Positions 4,146-42,854 of a stretch of DNA of 64,000 bases are shown here, piece after piece. Made by a program: the position numbers and the translations under genes. The number at the start of each line of letters is the position of its first letter. Positions within the stretch are counted from its first letter, which is position 1. Source of the DNA: Eledone cirrhosa (lineage: Eukaryota). The notes under the pieces are model-generated. The model saw only the letters and a program-made list of their open reading frames with translations. It searched no databases and had not been told where the DNA came from. Where the stretch lies: assembly GCA_964016885.1 (NCBI GenBank), contig OZ024746.1:21762001-21826000 (forward strand), given 5' to 3'.

Positions 4146-4363
4146 TAGTAGTGAGGCTATCACATGCCAGGCCAGACTGGAGAGTCCTCACTAATCCTAT
4201 TTTATCGACCCTGTAAGGGTGAAAGGCAAAGCTAACTCAAGATGTAAAGGACCATAATTCTATGCTGCCAAGCATGCTGTCTGACACTCTACCGTTACTT
4301 CCAATATGTCACCCTTCTCGTGATGATAGTAATAACACTATAAAATATACAATATTTTTTCAG

Positions 4364-5372: not shown

Positions 5373-5691
5373 GGTTGGCTTCTTTATTTTACTTCTTTTG
5401 TTAATGTTTTTGTTGTTTTTCCTGTCAATACCAGCACATAACCTGTTGTATAATGGACAGAATAAGTAATATTTCCTTTCTTCACCAAATTGTAATGAAA
5501 CTATGTTTAGAGTAACTGATGAATTTTGTGAAGAGAAATGGAATGAGATGATTGGGTCATGTGTTGAGGAAGGATTAAAGTTACTGGGTGAGAGGAATGG
5601 AGTAAGTGATAAATATTGTGAAGAGAAATGAATTAAATGGCTAGGGCATATGTTGCAGGAGGACATACTTTAGCAGGGAAAATTGCCTTAA

Positions 5692-5899
5692 CCATTTAGC
5701 ATTTACATTACTCTATATTTATTATTGTATTTTTTACAGTAAAGGCTTTATCTCACATAATATTTAATATATGAGATTTCGATATTATTTATTTTGAGAA
5801 CAATATCTTAACATAAGTTTGAGTGGCCAGTTACGGCTGGTTTGAACAGAAAGAGGTGAGAGAATCTGACCGGGTACAGCCGGTTTAAATGCTAAAGGG
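5692..5899. mobile_element. 208-bp piggyBac-like MITE (TTAA TSD)
   Basis: TTAA|CCATTTAGCATTT...AAATGCTAAAGGG|TTAA. Empty site in the duplicate at ~8715; other copies at 11358-11674, ~12900-13115 (partial) and 35635-35842. Confidence 0.85.
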
Positions 5900-7304
5900 T
5901 TAAAACATTTGTATTGTTTATTTTATTTTTCTCACAGTGTATACTAGGTTGAACCTTGAATTGCTTGAAGTTGGATATTGATTTTTATTTCTCTGGATCC
6001 AGTTTAAGAAAGTTTTACTGATTTATCCGCTTGTTATGTTACTTCTGAAATAGCTTATGTGAATATCTTTTTATTGATGGCTGGTATAAATCTATAAGTT
6101 TGTTTAATGGGACATTGCATGTTAGAACGTGATTCTATCATTTACAGTTTAACTTTGAGAGCAGTGATGCATAAGAGCTTTCAGAATTTGACCCACAAAA
6201 TTCTCGAGGGAAACTTCATGAACCACCAAATAATAAATTACTTTGAATAGCATTGTAATACACAGTAGAATATGAATATTATAGAATGAAAAATCAATCA
6301 TCATCATCATCATCGTTGTTGTCAGCCATCATCATCATCATCACCACCATCCTCAATTTCCTCCTCCCCTCCTCAACCTCCTCATCATCATCATCATCAT
6401 CATCGTCGTCCTACTCCACCTCTTCAGCTACATCACCATCATCAGCATCATCGTCCTACTCCACCTCTTCCTCTACATCATCATTACCATCATCAACATC
6501 GTCCTCCTCCACCTCTTCCTCATCATCATCATCATCGTCATCATCATCGACATCACTGTTTTACATATATTTTCCATGCTTGCATGGTATTTTATTTCCA
6601 ATACATTATTGATATTTTATTTTATTGACCCTGTAAGGATCAAAGGCAAAACTAACCTCGGCAGAATTTGAACTCAGAACGTAAAGGGTTGTAACTCTAT
6701 GTCCAAGGATTTTAGTGTTCTAAAATTTCATAGTCTGACCAAGATACTCTCATGGAATAACCAATTGAAGTTTACTTTTCATCATAGTCCCTGGTAAAAA
6801 ACACAATACAGTTATTAATAAGAACAGTTGAAATTAATGTATGCAACATTCCACATCATTCTTTTATAGTCAGCCTATAACTTTTTAGCTGACCCTCGTA
6901 TATGCTGTGAGTATTGGGTTTAGAATAGTTACACCATATCCCTGTGTGTTGTACGATGTTACTAAAAGGGTTGGCACCTAGAAGGGGACCATAAAGGGCA
7001 CCAGGAAAGGTCTCTAACTGTAAAAAGATTGTCTTAAAAAGTTCCCTATGGTGAGTATAAAACCTGTTGTGGGGCTCCTGCTTCAACAGAGGAAATCGTC
7101 TTAAAACATTTGTGTATTTTGTATTTAATCTTCTACAATTTCATCCAACCAGCTCCAATATTTGAGGGTATCTCTTATATGCTTTTACTATTTCCAGCTA
7201 ACGAGTCAAGGCCATGCTGGGGCATCATATGTCTTGTATTTATAGACATTTTCTTTACTAACTATTCTTTGCTAATTCCTAAAACAAATAATTTTTTTTT
7301 CCAG

Positions 7305-8039: not shown

Positions 8040-9863
8040 ATACATTAGCAGTAACATATTGTATATATCCATATACACCACTATTATCTCATATATATTG
8101 GCTTCTAACATATTGTATATACCTCCATATCTCATATATATATATCCATATACACCACTATTATCTCATATATATTAGCTTCTAACATATTGTATATACC
8201 TCCATATACACCTCTATCATCTCATATATATTAGCTTCTAACATACTGTATATACCTCCATATACACCTCTGTCATATCATATATATTAGCTTCTAACAT
8301 ACTGTATATACCTCCATATACACCTCTGTCATATCATATATATTAGCTTCTAACATACTGTATATACCTCCATATACACCTCTATCATCTCATACAGGTT
8401 GGCTTCTTTATTTTACTTCTTTTGTTAATGTTTTTCTGTTGTTTTTCCTGTCAATACCAGCACATAACCTGTTGTATAATGGACAGAATAAGTAATATTT
8501 CCTTTCTTCACCAAATTGTAATGAAACTATGTTTAGAGTAACTGATGAATTTTGTGAAGAGAAATGGAATGAGATGATTGGGTCATGTGTTGAGGAAGGA
8601 TTAAAGTTACTGGGTGAGAGGAATGGAGTAAGTGATAAATATTGTGAAGAGAAATGAAATGAAATGGCTAGGGCATATGTTGCAGGAGGACATACTTTAG
8701 CAGGGAAAATTGCTTTAAAACATTTGTATTGTTTATTTTATTTTTCTCACGGTGTATACTAGGCTTAACCTTGAATTGCTTGAAGTTGGATATTGATTTT
8801 TATTTCTCTGGATCCAGTTTAAGAAAGTTTTACTGATTTATCCGCTTGTTATGTTACTTCTGAAATAGCTTATGTGAATATCTTCTTATTGATGGCTGGT
8901 ATAAATCTATAAGTTTGTTTAATGGGACATTGCATGTTAGAACGTGATTCTATCATTTACAGTTTAACTTTGAGAGCAGTGATGCATAAGAGCTTTCAGA
9001 ATTTGACCCACAAAATTCTCGAGGGAAACTTCATGAACCACCAAATAATAAATTACTTTGAATAGCATTGTACTACACAGTAGAATATGAATATTATAAA
9101 ATGATAATCAATCAATCATCATCATCATCATCATCATCATTGTCCTCATCCTCATCCTCCTACTCCTGCTCCTCCTCGCATCATCACCATTGTCATCGTC
9201 ATCATCATCACCACCATCCTGCACCTCATCATCATCATCATCATCATCGTCGTCGTCCTACTCCACCTCTTCCGCTACATCACCATCATCATCATCATCG
9301 TCCTACTCCACCTCTTCCGCTACATCACCATCATCATCATCATCGTCCTACTCCACCTCTTCCGCTACATCACCATCATCATCATCATCGTCCTACTCCA
9401 CCTCTTCCTCTACATCACCATCATCATCATCATCGTCCTCCTCGACCTCTTCCTCATCATCATCATCATCATCGTCATCATCATCGACATCACTGTTTTA
9501 CATATATTTTCCATGCTTGCATGGTATTTTATTTCCAATACATTATTGATATTTTATTTTATTGACCCTGTAAGGATGAAAGGCAAAGCTAACCTCGGCA
9601 GAATTTGAACTCAGAACGTAAAGGGCTGTAACTCTATGCCCAAGGATTTTAGTGTTCTAAAATTTCATAGTCTGACCAAGATACTCTCATGGAATAACCA
9701 ATTGAAGTTTACTTTTCATCATAGTCCCTGGTAAAAAACACAATACAGTTATTAATAAGAACAGTTGAAATTAATGTATGCAACATTCCACATCGTTCTT
9801 TTATAGTCAGCCTATAACTTTTTAGCTGACCCTCGTATATGCTGTGAGTATTGGGTTTAGAAT
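8040..9863 (+). repeat. ~1.8 kb direct duplicate of intronic segment ~4739-6926
   Basis: Long near-identical blocks (e.g. 5373-5687 vs 8394-8714; 5904-6290 vs 8719-9105; 6540-6926 vs 9477-9863), bracketed by CTAATGAGTCTC on both sides. Confidence 0.93.
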
Positions 9864-15182: not shown

Positions 15183-15275
15183 ATGGCAGCGCTGGAGCAA
15201 TGGTGTTTATATTCCAAGATGCTGCAACAGTTAGCATACAGTTTAGCAGCCATGAAGCCAACTCCATGGGAAAAG
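15183..15275 (+). CDS. PI4KA: PI4KA (phosphatidylinositol 4-kinase III alpha) coding exon 1
   Basis: gtcATCATGG start, AAG/GTTAGT donor. Encodes MAALEQWCLYSKMLQQLAYSLAAMKPTPWEK, resembling PI4KA LARSLAVQRPASLEK as recalled; phase 0 matches exon 2. Confidence 0.85.
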
Positions 15276-16452
15276 GTTAGTATTTAACAAACAAATCAAG
15301 CTGTTGTTATCTATTTCTACTTGCATCTGTCAATCTAGCTCTTATTTTACTTTGATCCGTTACAGACACCCACTCTTACGCACACACACACACATATACA
15401 AATCTTACAACCGCCGGTCTTTGACCATTCTATCTGCCACCCTCTTCTCTTTTCAAATAATATATATATATATATATATATGTGTGTATATATATTTTCC
15501 TTCTATTATATATTTAGGATGATGATCAGTTTATAACGTATTCGTCAAAATTCTTGTTTGTCTATTATTCAAATCTGTTTTGTCGTTAGACTTCGGACTT
15601 GGGGCAAGTCACACTCATACATCGATCTTGTATACAGTTGTTACAAATTCGATTAGGTGACCATTTCTTTACAGCATCTCGGCTATTCTAGTGTTTGTCT
15701 AAACAGCTGTACTTGTATGGCATTTTTTATTTCCTGTGTCTAATTAGCTATTGATCTTTGTGATATCTTTCTCGAAGACAATGGAGACTCAGAAGCGATA
15801 CACCGTATGTCTTATACTGTTGAATCCATGCTATAACACCTTACTAATTACGCAGATATACGTAAGGTGTATCAAGTGTATTTAAGGTGTGCGCGTGAGG
15901 GTGTGTATGTGTCTACATATACATACACAGTATACACGCAACCATATGCATAGATATACATATACGTACACACAGCTTACATAGATATATATATATATAT
16001 ATATACATTAAACTCAGAAACAGGTAGACCATTTATTTATCGACACTGCCACTTTATATACAAACATTTAAGGTATACGCCTTATCATGAATACATTTAC
16101 ACTGCTACATCTTATACAAACATACAGGCACCCACGCCTTCTTATTCCGCACACACATACACACAATAGACATGCGATTTATAGTTGTTGCACATGCAAC
16201 TCACTACATTGACACAAATGCACAATCTCACACGTTTACTAGCACCCGCATCTACAATATATATACATATATAATATATATATATATATATGTATATCTA
16301 GAGAGAGATTGGGAGTTACCAGTTTAGACTAGTAAGACCATGTTCAGCTAAGTATTCGATACTTGGGGAAACGGTGAGTGCTCGGCCGTCGGGCACTAAC
16401 TTTGCACTATATATATATATATATATAGTCTTTAACTCCGTTTTTTAATTTG

Positions 16453-22485: not shown

Positions 22486-23126
22486 AATTTTTAGAAATGA
22501 CACACCTCTCGTCTTTGAGGTGAAATTGTTTTTCTTCCATTGGTTTTTGGTGTTTTGAACTCATCTGACCTTCGAAACCGTCGGAAATTATTATTTAGAA
22601 TAAAGTACCAGTAATGCACTGGGTAATTGCTGGCCTTGTGCCTAAAGTAGAAACAATTATTATTATTATTATTTTATTTTATTTTTTTTTTTTTGTTAAC
22701 GGGTGGTGGCTGTTGTGGGCGGGGCACTCGGAGTTCTCAGATTCGGGGATGAAATGTATGTTTCTCCTATTGCTTCTGGTGCGTTTTGAACGAATATCGC
22801 CTCTAAAACCGAAGACCATATTCGGTTAAAAACACCAAAACCTTTTGCCTCCAACGTGAGACGGGTGTAATAATAAAATTTACCAATTTATTTTAATGGA
22901 AGCTCAAAAATAAGTATTTATCATGGAGGAGGAGAGGGTCGATTCTAGGGAAGCACCATTTGTGGTAGCCCCGATGAAATGTTCAGCTAGGTTGCCCAAA
23001 GCCAACTTCACTCGCTCCTGCATCTATCAATCCATATTGAAGATCTGATATGCAATATAAATTCCACCCCTGTCCCTATCGTATGTAATATAAACAAACA
23101 CTTTTTTCATCGATATATACTGCGCA

Positions 23127-23175
<49 letters not shown>

Positions 23176-24004
23176 ATATATATATATATTGTATATATAT
23201 ATATTGTATATATATATATATATATATTGTATACATGTGTTTCTGCATATGCATAAAATCGTTAAATCTTATTTACTGGGTTCTTTCTTTTTTCTTTCTT
23301 TTTATAATTTTTATTATCTTTTCTTTTTGCAGTGGTGGAATATCTGTGTAACTGTTTGTTTATATGTACATGTATGATAATTATTATCAAAACAGAGGCC
23401 TGGTTCTGAATAAATTAATATATTTTCACTTATTTAGTTGCGGTATTTACGTAAACCGGGTCACACTTATCTTAAGTTAGTGTGTGGTTACTGTGAAAGG
23501 ATACGCAAGAAATCTATAAATCTATTTATTATGTGTGCAATTCGATTCCGGTTCTCCTTTTACCCTCACCTTGTTACTCCACCATCTTCCCCCTCTCTCT
23601 ATCTATCTATACACACACACACACACATATATTTATATATATGAAATTTGAAATGTAGTCGTTCCAACGTAAATAACTATAATAGTAGTTAATCACTATA
23701 AATAATAGCTAAAAAAAAATCTAGTGAGCTATTCCAGGAGATGAAAAAAAATGGATAGAGGCGCCTGTTATGAAACTCTGTGTGTGTGTATATATATATA
23801 CAATATATTAATAAATGGAAAGTATATTTATAAAACCATATTTATTTTATTATACATATTTCAAGGGCATATTTACTCCACTAAACTGTTGAGTGCTTTA
23901 TATCAGTTATAAAATTTTTTAAAATTAAATATAACCTCTGCATATATATATATATAAATGAAAGTATAGAAATTATTGTGAGCGTGAAGCCAACAGTATT
24001 TCAT

Positions 24005-24073
<69 letters not shown>

Positions 24074-24310
24074 TCATCATCATCGTCACCGTTTTACGTC
24101 CATTCTTCCATGCTAGCATGGATTAGACGAATTGTCCTGTTGTGAGCAATGCTAGGTCAGGTGACCATGCCTTGCTTATACAGGACTGATATGGACTTAG
24201 TTTCTACAACTGGATGCCCTTCCTAACACCAACTTCATTTACAGTGAGTACTGGGTGCTTTTTGTTGTGACGCCTGCACGGCCACTTTACAGTGTGTGTG
24301 TGTGTGTATA

Positions 24311-24757
24311 TATCATCATCATCACCGTTTTATGTCCGTTCTTCCACGCTAGCATGAGTTAGACGGGTTGTCCTGTTGTGGGCAGTGTCCGGTCGGCTGA
24401 CCTTGTCTTGCTCATACGGGAACTGATTCTGGCTTGATTTATACAGCTGGATGCCCTTCCTAACACCAACCTCATTTACAGTGAGTGCTGGGTGCTTTTT
24501 TTTTTCCCGTGGCGTCTACACGTCCACTTTGCAGTGTGGGCTGGGTGCTTTTTTTGCCGTGGCACCTCCATGACCACTTTACAGTAGAATGATAGGCACC
24601 CCAGTCCTATCATCTCATTTCTACAGCTGAGTAAACTGGAGCAACGTGAAATAAAGTGTCTTGCTCAAGGAAACAACGCATCACGTGGTCCGAGGATTGA
24701 ACTCACAACCTTTCGATTGCAAGCCCAATGCTCTAACCACTAAGCCATGCCCCTTCA
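24311..24757 (-). mobile_element. tRNA-derived CORE-like SINE (longer variant), with a 3' fragment of the same family at ~24070-24295
   Basis: Same head, CORE and tail as 20205, 32003 and 57197, with an extra internal repeat unit. Confidence 0.8.
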
Positions 24758-25066
24758 TATATATATATAAAATTGCAAGTTTGAAGAATTATTAGATAAA
24801 ATATATACAGTCCTTCCTCTCCCTAGTCCACAGAAATCAACCACATAAATAATCATTTAAACGAGGCTATAAGTTTAAAATGTAACTATGAAGAAATAAT
24901 AGACAAATGATATAAACTATTCTGTGAGGAATAGTCAGATAGAATTTATCTAGTCATTCCTTTTAGCCCGTAGAAATTAACTAGACAAGTGATCAACTAA
25001 ACGGAGCTAGGTCTAAAATATAAGTTAGAAGAAAAAATGCATATAAACTTTACCAAAATTCCTCTA

Positions 25067-25155
25067 GTCCCGACTGTCGACAGTTTCGCTCTTTTTTTTT
25101 TGTGTATATATCCGATCCTGGAATTATCCATGAGGCTTGGAGCTTATCAAGAGAC
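25067..25155 (-). ncRNA. Type I hammerhead ribozyme candidate, U3:A8 core variant (copy A)
   Basis: Minus strand: GUCUC-UUGAUAA-GCUC..(loop)..GAGC-GAAAC-UGUCGACA-GUC-GGGAC. Stems I, II and III all pair; stem III is palindromic. Confidence 0.7.
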
Positions 25156-25662
25156 ACTTCGAGTTTGGACTAAAATTTCTACAGTGATCACCGCCAGAAA
25201 TGGATTCAAAAATGGCTAAGAATCATCACGTGGCTAGTGGTCAAGTTAGAAGGTTGTGATTGGTGGCCAGGCGGCATGTAGGCTGGTTGCTAGAAAGCGC
25301 AGCCAGATACTGCCTATTGAGCCACACCGTGAAAGGTAGCCACACTCATATATGTATCTGTGACTATGTCTAAATATATGCCTGAATATATACATATATC
25401 CCTATGAATTATATATATATATATAAATGTGGTTGGTGTTAGGAAGGGCATCCAGCTGTAGAAAACCCGCCAGACAGTCCTATGCGAGCAAGTCAACCAC
25501 TCTTGCCTCAAGTGGGAAAACTCCCGTCCAAACCCATGCAAGCGTGGAACATGGACGTTAAACGATGATGATGATGATGATGATATATATATATGCGTGT
25601 GTGTATAACAATTATAAATGTAAAGTGCAAATAGACAAAATAAACCTAATTTTTTTTTTCAA

Positions 25663-25754
25663 AGTCCCGACTGTACAGTTTCGCCGACCAGTAAGCAGTC
25701 AGAGTATAACTATAGTGCACTGGGGCCATGAGGTTGTCAGCTTATCAAGAGACC
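25663..25754 (-). ncRNA. Type I hammerhead ribozyme candidate, U3:A8 core variant (copy B)
   Basis: Minus strand: GGUCUC-UUGAUAA-GCUGAC..(loop)..GUCGGC-GAAAC-UGUACA-GUC-GGGACU. 6-bp stems I and II, palindromic stem III. Confidence 0.72.
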
Positions 25755-25881
25755 CCTCAATGAAAGGACAAATTCCTGAACTGTGATATATATATCCATT
25801 TGTAGCTGGCATCCAAAAGAAAAGAGTACTCAATACTGAAGAAGAATTTAAATATTCATTTTATTAAGGCTAAATAGTGAG

Positions 25882-25930
25882 TCTTGTTACTCTGGAGTTT
25901 CACCTGCTTCTCATGGGGTCATCAGATACA
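25882..25930 (-). ncRNA. Degenerate hammerhead-like motif (Penelope pseudo-LTR-type)
   Basis: Minus strand: CUGAUGA-CCCC..GGU-GAAAC-UCCAGA-GUA, then AAUAAA. Stems I and II are poor. Confidence 0.45.
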
Positions 25931-27176
25931 TATATATGTGTGTGTGTAATCTTGTTGTATGCATGCGTAAGAAAACATCCTTGGCCTTTGTATATGTTTC
26001 CATTATACAAATCAAAAAAGAACTACAGTACTGTGTTATTTTCACTGTTCTATAATAATTCATTCATATGCATTATCCTGTGTTGAATTTCTGAGCTCAC
26101 TGTGGCTTAGTAGAAGAAATATGTTTTTATTAATGCAATTAAATGATATTAGTGTATTAAAAAAAGCTGTTCTTTTGGTTACTTTCTACAACAGCAAAAA
26201 GCATTTACCATAAAAACAATAAAATAATCAAAGAACAGCAACAAGTTGTTTCCATAGTCTTGTATAATCATGATTTTATTATTTATTCACATTGAAAAGG
26301 GCAGTTGGTTGGAAGTATCGGTAGAGCATTGAACAATATGCTGTAAAGTATGTTGTCACAGCTCTTTATGCTCTGAGTTCAAATGCCACTGAGGTTAGCT
26401 TTGCCTTTCATCCTTATGGGGTAGATAAAATAAAGTACCAGCAATGCTCTGGAGTTGATTTAATCAACTTTCCCCTCCACAAAATTGTTGGCCTTGTGCC
26501 TAAATCAGAAATCATTATTTATTCGCATTCGAGCACAAGACAAAACAGTTCCAATATGGTCTGTCTGCCAAATAACTTACTGACTGCTGCTATAGATGAT
26601 GTAGATTTATATGCATACATGCACAATAAAGGAAGTAAATTGACAGTCATTAGAACATCAGAATACTTTGTGGTGGTCATTCCAGCTCTCTACACTCAAA
26701 TTCCTTTGTGGTCAATTTTGTCTTTCATCCTTTTGAGGTCGATAAATATAGTACCAGTCCACTACTGGGGTCAGTTCTTTCTCCAGCTCTCTTTCTCACC
26801 TTCACTCTTTCTGTTTCTCTGAAATAATTTAACTGAGAGGGATAGGTTGTCACTACAGTGCTCCTACGACTTAGTCAAGAGTTAAGGGCCCATACCACGT
26901 ACAATATCTCAATTATTTTTTTCAATATCAATTTGATATTCTCAGAGAATGTCTTCATTCCAATTGATATTTCTTGGTGACAATATTTTCCAGGGCAACA
27001 TCCACCATTCCCACCGATTTGTTTTAATTCACTTATTTCATCAACAAATACAGAAATATATCACATATTATCACAATAATTATCATGCAGCCCCTGGCTC
27101 CTCTGCTGGACATACCTATAAGCTAAAAAAGCCATAGCTTAATTGCCACACACACACTCGGAGGCCTCAGTGTAGC

Positions 27177-27436
27177 CAGTGCTGGACTTGCCTATAAGCT
27201 ATAGCTTAGGGTCACACACCTTCAAGCTCCTCATTTTTAAAAATATATTTTTATTTTATCACACTAAATCATTAAAAAATTATATATATATATATTTAAT
27301 TTATTCTTTATTATTAACATTAATATAAAAATAATGTCCATGTATAATTATTTTAATTTGTTTTACACAAATCTTTTTCGAGAAGGGTGTCAAATTTCAT
27401 ATAGCTTAGGGGCTCAGCAGGTGAGAGTCCAGCCCT
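27177..27436. mobile_element. hAT-like MITE, degenerate
   Basis: Imperfect TIRs CAGTGCTGGACT and AGTCCAGCCCTG; right-end fragment also at ~21330-21375; no clean 8-bp TSD. Confidence 0.45.
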
Positions 27437-28603
27437 GTGTATATCATGATATAAACTATAATTTGATATTGGTATATCATGATATAAGGCAGTGAATTGG
27501 CAGAGCTGTTAGAATGTTGGATAGAGTGCTTTGTAGTATTGGTTCTGGCTCTATGCTCTCTTAAGTTCAAATCGCATCGAGGTCAGCTTTAAAAATATGT
27601 ACCAGTCTAGTACTGGGGTCAATTCTTCCTCTGTATCCCTTTCTCAGAAATGCTGTATGTCCATATAGCACCCTTATGACTCTATCAGGAGTTACAGGAC
27701 CATACCATAACATGATATAAACTATAATTTGATATTGGTATATCATGATAAAAACTATAATTCAATATTGTTATAATACGATATAAATGTTATTAAGAAA
27801 CAGCTCTCTAGCATTATAGCTTATATACGTCAGCAGTCAATAATGAATAGTCTATATTTCTGTAGTTCTCTTTCACTTTTTTATAATTATAGTAATGCAG
27901 AGTTCAAGGACATTTCTTTGCACAGTTATTCAATACTATGTATATATAATATATGTATACACATAGAAAAAGCTGGCCTCTTTTTATCCATCTCTGGAGG
28001 TATTTTACCAGATTTTGCAAGCTATTTATAGCAATTATCTGTTACAGTTATTTTCTGTATTCAGGATTTCCATATTATATACATAGTAATAATAAATGTG
28101 AAGACTAAAATCCGAAGAGGGGTCGATAAGGATAATATATATGTATATATATAAAATATCATCATCATCATCGTTTAACGTCTATCTTCCATGCTAGCAT
28201 GGGTTTGGACGGGAATTTTCCCACTTGTGGCAAGATTGGTTGTCTTACTCGTATAGGACTGTCTGGCGGGTTTTCTACGGCTGGATGCCCTTCCTAACAC
28301 CAACCACGCTTACAGTGTGGACTAGGAGGTTTTTACCGTGTTACCTACACGGCCACATTACAGCGTGGACTGTGTTTTTTTTTTTTGTTGTGACACCTAC
28401 ACGACCTCATTTATTTAGGACTGGATGTTGTGGTACCAACATAACTTTACATATAAACCCACAGAGCAAATAATTATTTAATCTGTACTTATAATATATA
28501 TATATATATATATAATGGAAAAATTTGAACAGGAACAAAACAGAGGGGCAGTACAACGAATGTTTATTAATTTCACGCTCTGGAGAGTGGGGTGGTGGTG
28601 GGG

Positions 28604-42018: not shown

Positions 42019-42138
42019 GTGAACAAAATATTGAAACTATGTCCATCTGAAAGTAGCCATGGAACCCTTAAATTGGACAGCCGGTCCCAGGATGTTATTC
42101 TAGCTTTGGGTATATATTTACTGGAGTCTGGACTTCAG
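42019..42138 (+). CDS. PI4KA: PI4KA coding exon 2
   Basis: tttatAG and GTAAGA, 120 nt. Encodes VNKILKLCPSESSHGTLKLDSRSQDVILALGIYLLESGLQ. Confidence 0.92.
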
Positions 42139-42854
42139 GTAAGAACATCTTGATAATCTTCATTCAGATACCAATATACAAGCTGTGTGGTTCACTTTAC
42201 ATCTATGTGGTTTTGGCCTACAGCGGGATTGAACCTGGGACTTAATGATTGTAAAGTGAACTTCTTAACCATTTGTCCATGCTACTTCCTCTCTATTATG
42301 GTATTTCCAAAGAGTTTGTTCCACTCTGTCAAAACTAATTTTTTCTCAACTTCTGAAAAAAGAATTTTTTAAGCAGTCTTCTCATTAGGACACAAATTTA
42401 ACTTTTTAAATGTGTTTTTACATACAAAATAAGATAAATGATATATATAAAGAGTTCATTGATTGAAAACTTATGTGTTCAGTTGTATATATTTACAAAC
42501 AAGAAGATACGAAAAAGAAAAAATGTGTGGTAGGAGAGAAAGAGAGAAAATAAATTAAAAAAGAAGAGAAGAGAAATGGAAAGGGCAGACTCTATGCTCC
42601 TGGCAAGGTGGTATATCTCAGCTGCTCCTCATGGACAAGATGGATAACAGCCAGTGATACCCAATACATCAGCCATTCTACCTCATGGGCTTACTATATC
42701 AGGCAAGATGACTACTTCCCAATTTTGTGGAGAAAAGCAGCTGTCTAAGGACTGAGGACACTGGCAATCTCTGTGACATCTGCTACAAAAAGGAAACAGT
42801 CAGTCAAAGCCCAGTATTTCAGATTAATTAAGGGTTACTCTAATCACTATTGTT

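Follow-up and report, generated by a model that had tools for sequence, protein, structure and literature searches.

A Coding Intron of PI4KA Holds Two Hammerhead Motifs

The DNA under study, hereafter the window, is a stretch of 64 kb from the genome of Eledone cirrhosa (contig OZ024746.1, positions 21,762,001 to 21,826,000). It comprises the first two coding exons of PI4KA on the plus strand (Table 1), for which the best-matching proteins among those listed are molluscan. An earlier sequence-only reading had placed two hammerhead ribozymes antisense in intron 1 of this gene, and both motifs indeed lie on the minus strand between these two exons, "intron 1" being the first coding intron, as defined by coding exons and irrespective of any upstream non-coding exon. 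With two decayed insertions in antisense orientation within an intron of 27 kb, the locus as such is ordinary. Upstream of PI4KA exon 1 the same translated frames occur twice, at window positions 5470-6250 and 8496-9065, which represents a local duplication.

Table 1. Coordinates of the features discussed (window positions unless a contig is named).
Feature	Position	Strand or extent	Remarks
PI4KA first coding exon	15189..15281	+	tblastn with mollusc PI4KA proteins, E 1.6e-5
Family A element, unit positions 166-719 of 719	24762..25316	-	94.8% to family column majority
Hammerhead copy A (family A, subfamily A2-like flank)	25067..25161	-	descriptor match and stem reading
Predicted pseudoknot 5' strand, copy A (CGAAG)	25157..25161	-	partner CCUCA 25135-25131; 2/5 pairs broken
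Inverted 5' piece of family A insertion, unit positions 38-141	25316..25419	+	96%
Dispersed repeat between elements A and B	25424..25580	.	8 further window matches, up to 98% alike
Family B element, 5'-truncated 180-nt fragment	25604..25783	-	89% to family column majority
Hammerhead copy B (family B)	25663..25759	-	descriptor match and stem reading
Predicted pseudoknot 5' strand, copy B (UGAGG)	25755..25759	-	partner CCUCA 25733-25729; 5/5 pairs intact
PI4KA second coding exon	42019..42140	+	tblastn with mollusc PI4KA proteins, E 1e-10
Head-to-tail array, 657-nt units, C3:G8 sister family	C1:92986696-93015535 (L256, L257)	at least 29 kb	hammerhead in each unit
Neptune-like PLE, pLTR-ORF-pLTR (L123:780-6940)	C1:145870000-145877000	-	938-aa open RT+GIY-YIG frame

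A type I descriptor (stem I of at least 5 bp, stem II of at least 4 bp, UUGANAA core) run over the 64-kb window returned exactly two matches, both on the minus strand with cores starting at 25748 and 25150; 60 dinucleotide shuffles of the window gave a mean of 0.033 matches and a maximum of 1. With a CUGANGA core the same descriptor found no match in the window, in keeping with the expectation that standard searches would overlook these motifs. An Rfam scan of positions 23000-28000 yielded 17 weak matches at E≤5 with no hammerhead among them, for which the long helix II together with the variant core is the likely reason. In copy A, the core UUGAUAA occupies 25150-25144, stem I is formed by 25155-25151 with 25071-25067, stem II reads GCUC/GAGC, and the predicted cut lies at 25072/25071. 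The corresponding elements of copy B are a UUGAUAA core at 25748-25742, a stem I of 25754-25749 with 25668-25663, a stem II of GCUGAC/GUCGGC, and a predicted cut at 25669/25668. The segments from A15.1 to U16.1, which make up stem III, are perfect palindromes of 12 nt (A) and 10 nt (B), and the predicted cuts are spaced 597 nt apart: sequences, strand, stems, and cuts all agree with the initial description. Both motifs comprise the parts of a type I hammerhead (Y3UGAN7R8A, GAAA and UH, three helices, open stem I), and core, stems I-III, and cut triplet are intact in both, despite the 11% divergence of copy B. Folding of the monomers with a program that is confined to nested pairs and cannot model a pseudoknot gave a probability of 0.00 for the active stems of copy B and of 0.13 for stem I of copy A. 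Both hammerhead motifs are real.

The Two Motifs Stem from Separate Insertions

The element that carries copy A stops at the main 3' end of its family within a (TA)n run, and the adjoining inverted piece stops at position 141, the second end point of family A. The truncated element of copy B reaches the 3' end of family B and is followed by CA/TA/CAT repeats. The family A unit measures 719 nt, is ORF-less, and closes on itself in a circularly permuted manner, with a natural head-to-tail spacing at C1:347881760/347882479; tandem B copies, both with deletions, lie about 430-435 nt apart. The column majorities of the two families are ~63% alike, and the window copies differ in their divergence from their own majorities, copy A being 95% alike over 557 nt and copy B 89% over 180 nt. 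A search of the 3.0-Gb genome with copy B gave 344 first-look candidates, among which 40 were scored and the other copies were 77-88% alike, and the search with copy A gave 3303, the best other copies among 40 scored reaching 88-93%; these totals count candidates rather than copies, the exact motifs setting floors of 63 and 71 for family A. The sampled repeats are present as many variants (three sequencing contig runs). Elements A and B are separated by microsatellites and by a dispersed repeat (25424..25580) that is unrelated to either element and that we take to be SINE-like. Immediately beyond the (TA)n run that closes element A, window positions 24690-24747 resemble the tRNA-like head of a SINE-like repeat (26 bits, below threshold).

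Because of the common strand, the spacing of 597 nt, and the intactness of both copies in core, stems, and cut triplet even at the divergence of copy B, one might suppose that the host has co-opted the pair, a 597-nt RNA being released from an antisense transcript of PI4KA intron 1 by two cuts, much as the sequence-only reading had proposed for a product of ~600 nt. We consider this highly improbable, and the claim of a functional pair did not hold: The copies belong to two families of different age with the SINE-like repeat in between, and their juxtaposition is unique, as no B hammerhead was found beside A at 44 other A places and no A hammerhead beside B at 29 other B loci. Moreover, the mixed A/B stem III dimer is predicted at -8.3 kcal/mol versus -19.3 (A) and -13.4 kcal/mol (B) for the homoduplexes, and is thus weaker because the stem III palindromes differ; copy A has also lost two of five pairs of the pseudoknot described below as well as the fifth pair of stem II, and both copies were noticed precisely for being intact. 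From the two families, their divergence, the intervening repeat, and the unique juxtaposition it follows that the 597-nt spacing is incidental. A single A+B unit in the form of a 597-nt retrozyme was likewise rejected, given the two families, the intervening SINE-like repeat, and the lack of any other paired locus in the sample. Any double-cleavage product of this length would be a chance chimera. Most likely, each window copy is a decayed monomer, and the two came together in this large intron because both target (TA)n. Judging from the sequence comparisons, the motifs very probably reside in two separate insertions of related repeats, with units of 719 nt and about 430-490 nt, which are ORF-less, circularly permuted, and likely to be mobilised in trans by Penelope-type enzymes.

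The Units Are Inserted in a Penelope-Like Manner

To describe the architecture, we counted 29 distinct A places; a wider total of 45 adds loci that were selected for tandems. The unit end is reached in 25 of the 29 places and is then followed by (TA)n in 13 and by run-on into the next unit in 8; 13/29 contain an inverted 5' piece and 10/29 a partial tandem. Over the 45 places, 14 of 18 start pieces end at unit position 140-142. Relatives of unit A with canonical cores and 60-69% identity were found at loci around GIY-YIG matches, and these families C (662 nt) and D (690 nt) are sister families with the same layout as A. Tandem units with hammerheads occur in family C (L167), in the 657-nt array (Table 1), and in family B (L024, both copies damaged); neither the 45 places nor the 71 exact cores included two complete A hammerheads in direct tandem.

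The published hallmarks of Penelope-like elements (PLEs) include partial tandems, an inverted copy alongside, a tail in some copies, and a bias for (TA)n (PMC8557442); the tail is traced to two internal sites at which reverse transcription can start (PMC11167929). The units share with non-autonomous PLEs the partial tandems, the inverted 5' copy, the optional tail, and the microsatellite target, and with non-LTR retrozymes the absence of an ORF and the presence of one type I hammerhead per unit; the tail-like extension of family A measures ~141 nt, in contrast to the 30-40 bp reported for PLE tails. This Penelope-like insertion architecture suggests that they are likely non-autonomous PLEs (non-LTR retrozymes).

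An RT/GIY-YIG ORF was found in none of the units, which sets them apart from autonomous PLEs. The flanks, which the earlier reading had wished to see examined for Penelope RT/GIY-YIG, contain PLE ORFs of other families. PLE matches lie near 40 of 170 element loci, 24 in the same and 16 in the opposite orientation, with duplicates and low-complexity matches included in these counts, which are uninformative as to an orientation bias. Three apparent partners, namely a GIY-YIG fragment abutting a B copy (L022), a Neptune-like ORF upstream of a C copy (L100), and an RT+GIY-YIG ORF downstream of a D copy (L132), were rejected, since each has its own 3' region and hammerhead; the 3' region of L100 stops before the C unit in 40/40 other matches listed. 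All three are other families that share (TA)n sites. At L132 (L132:1204-1330 and 4270-4340) the D unit abuts the PLE at a (TA)n run, apparently inside the start of the PLE reading frame. Similarity between the units and the pLTR of an autonomous family was sought at 51 PLE loci, a small share of the PLE families of the genome (50 of 10596 GIY-YIG candidates examined), and yielded sister-unit insertions (L100, L132) or low-complexity matches. One autonomous-looking family is a candidate mobiliser, a sequence link to the ORF-less units being absent: L123, called Neptune-like from its CxxxxCxxC linker (as set out in PMC8557442), carries two minimal U3:A8 hammerheads 4979 nt apart and ends in TAATATATA followed by (TA)n, and near-identical copies are present at L124, L127, L130, L131, and L133.

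With a sample of this size, the units might instead be solo pseudo-LTRs or deletion fragments of an unsampled autonomous PLE and not self-spreading elements, all the more as the hammerhead-bearing PLE fragments reported in PMC4209133 are mostly single and truncated. However, ORF-less units are joined end to start in numerous independent copies and in a long array, each time with a fixed period (719, 662, 690, or 657 nt), and the same ORF-less layout recurs across many subfamilies, which renders such a fragment origin improbable.

The 3-8 Pair Is Kept Across a Superfamily

A genome-wide search that allowed U3:A8 returned 71 exact family-A cores, of which 63 are U3:A8, five U3:G8, two A3:A8, one C3:A8, and none C3:G8; among family-B copies, 25/27 are U3:A8. 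UUGAUAA is hence a genuine U3:A8 variant and not a product of decay, as had been surmised from the two motifs. The 8/71 cores that deviate fit decaying copies, as expected, and prove no constraint. All five U3:G8 cores have an A2-type stem II (e.g. L064, L219, L224); the U3:G8 cores of subfamily A2 are possibly a mobile wobble intermediate.

Beyond families A and B, a shared 17-mer that lies upstream of and outside the ribozyme has 2157 exact matches in the genome (control 0), the 657-nt array among them, and is absent from family B. At the first 30 of these loci, whose cores were read by eye, the core region is visible in 28, and all 28 have a Watson-Crick 3-8 pair (27 C-G, 1 U-A), with three damaged at other core positions. 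Most sampled members of the superfamily are thus canonical C3:G8, and copies A and B are U3:A8. Families A-D, the 657-nt array, and the 17-mer matches substantiate the proposal of a dispersed, mobile-type family that bears ribozymes. In an alignment of 23 copies, which were picked with core anchors, the mean identity is 64% and 12 of 13 invariant columns are located at or beside the core.

The history of the switch was addressed with an unrooted tree of 36 upstream sequences, from which the family C rows and one F row were left out and in which several truncated rows are long-branched: A tree constrained to a single switch surpassed the freely searched one by 13.55 log units (p-AU 0.92); in the latter, the C3:G8 rows were split owing to the long branches of truncated copies. 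A single change between C3:G8 and U3:A8 is accordingly not rejected by these sequences, and as the tree is compatible with one switch, the 3-8 covariation here amounts to one event. The homologues, which the earlier reading had named as a means of refutation, have covarying stems and a kept core, with the 3-8 switch counted only once.

An Internal Loop of Helix II Is Predicted to Form a Pseudoknot

The large loop II had been described as diverged except for CCUCA. The shared CCUCA stands, the simple loop does not: in the family, helix II is extended here through an internal loop into a further stem. Within this internal loop, CCUCA complements UGAGG located just 5' of stem I, and the duplex is predicted at -0.9 kcal/mol in copy A, -8.1 in copy B, -7.9 in A1, and -9.2 in A2. 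The pairing partners change with the subfamily: UGAGG/CCUCA is found in A1 and B, CGAGG or CGGGG/CCUCG in A2, GAGCU/AGCUC in C, CUGAGU/ACUCAG in D, and CGAGU/ACUCG in F. Among 11 subfamily representatives, the variable columns pair in 19/22 cells versus 13.0 with shuffled partners (fraction at or above the observed value 0.0007), a test that ignores relatedness and uses hand-picked copies with three central pairs anchored, A3 misregistered, and F left out; pairing was scored by an anchored script, as MAFFT gave the strands no common register. About four changes are two-sided, and one variable column shows G-C, U-A, and C-G. The contact of the internal loop with the segment 5' of stem I thus covaries across subfamilies, in line with a predicted pseudoknot that is damaged in copy A.

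Stem III is a perfect palindrome in 10/14 representatives with six different sequences, which extends the palindromic character already noted for the window copies; the loop centre of the 63 exact A matches is TCGA in 42, CCGG in 6, and TCGG in 5. The base of helix II is weak in families C (A.C in most) and D (U-A plus mismatches in most).

Whether the U3:A8 hammerheads are near-dead passengers, their fold being kept as a protein-binding or dimerisation signal and not for cleavage, has to be weighed against this covariation. Metazoan PLE hammerheads are reported to cleave poorly in vitro (PMC4209133), cleavage in an anole PLE depended on protein while insertion in vitro did not require it to occur (PMC11167929), and the U3:G8 cores with their A2-type stem II would suit such a loss. 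In contrast, the double change preserved the 3-8 pair, N7 varies between fixed neighbours, stems and pseudoknot covary, and U3-A8 has been reported to be active in vitro (PMC3088659). On balance, we regard a passenger role as unlikely, and the subfamily radiation, as read from its sequences, argues for selection on the hammerhead fold.

Proposed Mechanism and Relation to Known Systems

We propose that the superfamily works like a non-LTR retrozyme, its activity, expression, circles, and mobilisation being inferred: A tandem source copy would be transcribed, and two identical hammerheads would pair via the palindromic stem III, helices I and II being docked by a pseudoknot of 4-7 bp that the internal loop of helix II forms with the segment 5' of stem I. 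Unit-length RNA, possibly circularised, would then result from cleavage after GUC or GUA. In the next step, an RT/GIY-YIG protein of the Penelope type would introduce a nick into (TA)n DNA, and reverse transcription would start at one of two internal sites, either the unit end or ~141 nt beyond. These two start sites would give rise to more-than-unit, 5'-truncated, or 5'-inverted copies.

Several components of this scheme are known already, namely U3:A8 Penelope hammerheads, pseudoknotted hammerheads, and non-LTR retrozymes, and the pair in the window is accidental. Animal non-LTR retrozymes are ORF-less, AT-rich, equipped with a type I hammerhead, and known from a mussel (PMC7229834; see also PMC6765202), and retrozymes with units of 51-972 bp have been proposed as non-autonomous PLE derivatives (bioRxiv 10.64898/2026.07.22.740005). 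Like these, the units described here are ORF-less and AT-rich and occur with their type I hammerhead as monomers, dimers, and arrays; unlike them as reported, they are mostly dispersed, have 5' inversions and two fixed ends, and are predicted to contain a helix II of 48-59 nt with an internal-loop pseudoknot. The circRNAs reported for invertebrate retrozymes measure 170-400 nt, whereas our DNA units measure 430-720 nt. With the hammerheads of PLE pseudo-LTRs (PMC4209133, PMC8557442), exemplified by the U3-A8 hammerheads of the Schistosoma PLE Cercyon with about 1,300 matches (PMC4209133), they have in common the U3-A8 core, a palindromic stem III for dimers, partial tandem and inverted insertions, and the (TA)n bias. 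The pseudo-LTR hammerheads described there are, however, minimal and tied to an RT/GIY-YIG ORF, whereas large motifs in ORF-less units are found here, and C3:G8 and U3:A8 coexist within one homologous superfamily. Natural U3-A8 hammerheads and hammerheads stabilised by a pseudoknot have also been published (PMC3088659); in comparison with that main text, our motifs differ in that the partner resides in a long helix II, within its internal loop, and that the pseudoknot occurs together with a stem III of the dimer type, in a repetitive metazoan element. The giant squid genome paper counts 235 Rfam hammerheads, with no families described as far as its main text is concerned (PMC6962438). A literature search of main texts found no prior description of this ORF-less hammerhead family, which may have been catalogued earlier.

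Taken as a whole, the units could tentatively be regarded as an undescribed mollusc superfamily of Penelope-dependent mini-elements with a dimer-dependent and pseudoknot-docked hammerhead, circular RNAs of 430-720 nt, a C3:G8/U3:A8 switch in either direction within one radiation, and the A2 U3:G8 form as a surviving, still-mobile wobble intermediate, a combination that we hold to be possible and rather doubtful in its entirety. The role of hammerhead cleavage in Penelope-type mobility is an open question in the field (PMC8557442; PMC11167929). At least ten subfamilies in one genome with a kept 3-8 pair, six stem III palindromes, and a covarying pseudoknot constitute a natural mutagenesis series, from which C3:G8 and U3:A8 constructs can be drawn as matched pairs. 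The number of such ribozymes is underestimated by Rfam and by CUGANGA descriptors.

Two features flank the hammerhead. In most subfamilies, a conserved GGTAWGT/GGTAAA located 10-18 nt 3' of the cut (copy A: 25055-25048) resembles a 5' splice site, and PLE pLTRs can hold introns. Upstream of the hammerhead, units A, C, and D as well as the L123 pLTR contain CCAAT-like and TGGCGCG-like boxes, which we presume may be an internal promoter.
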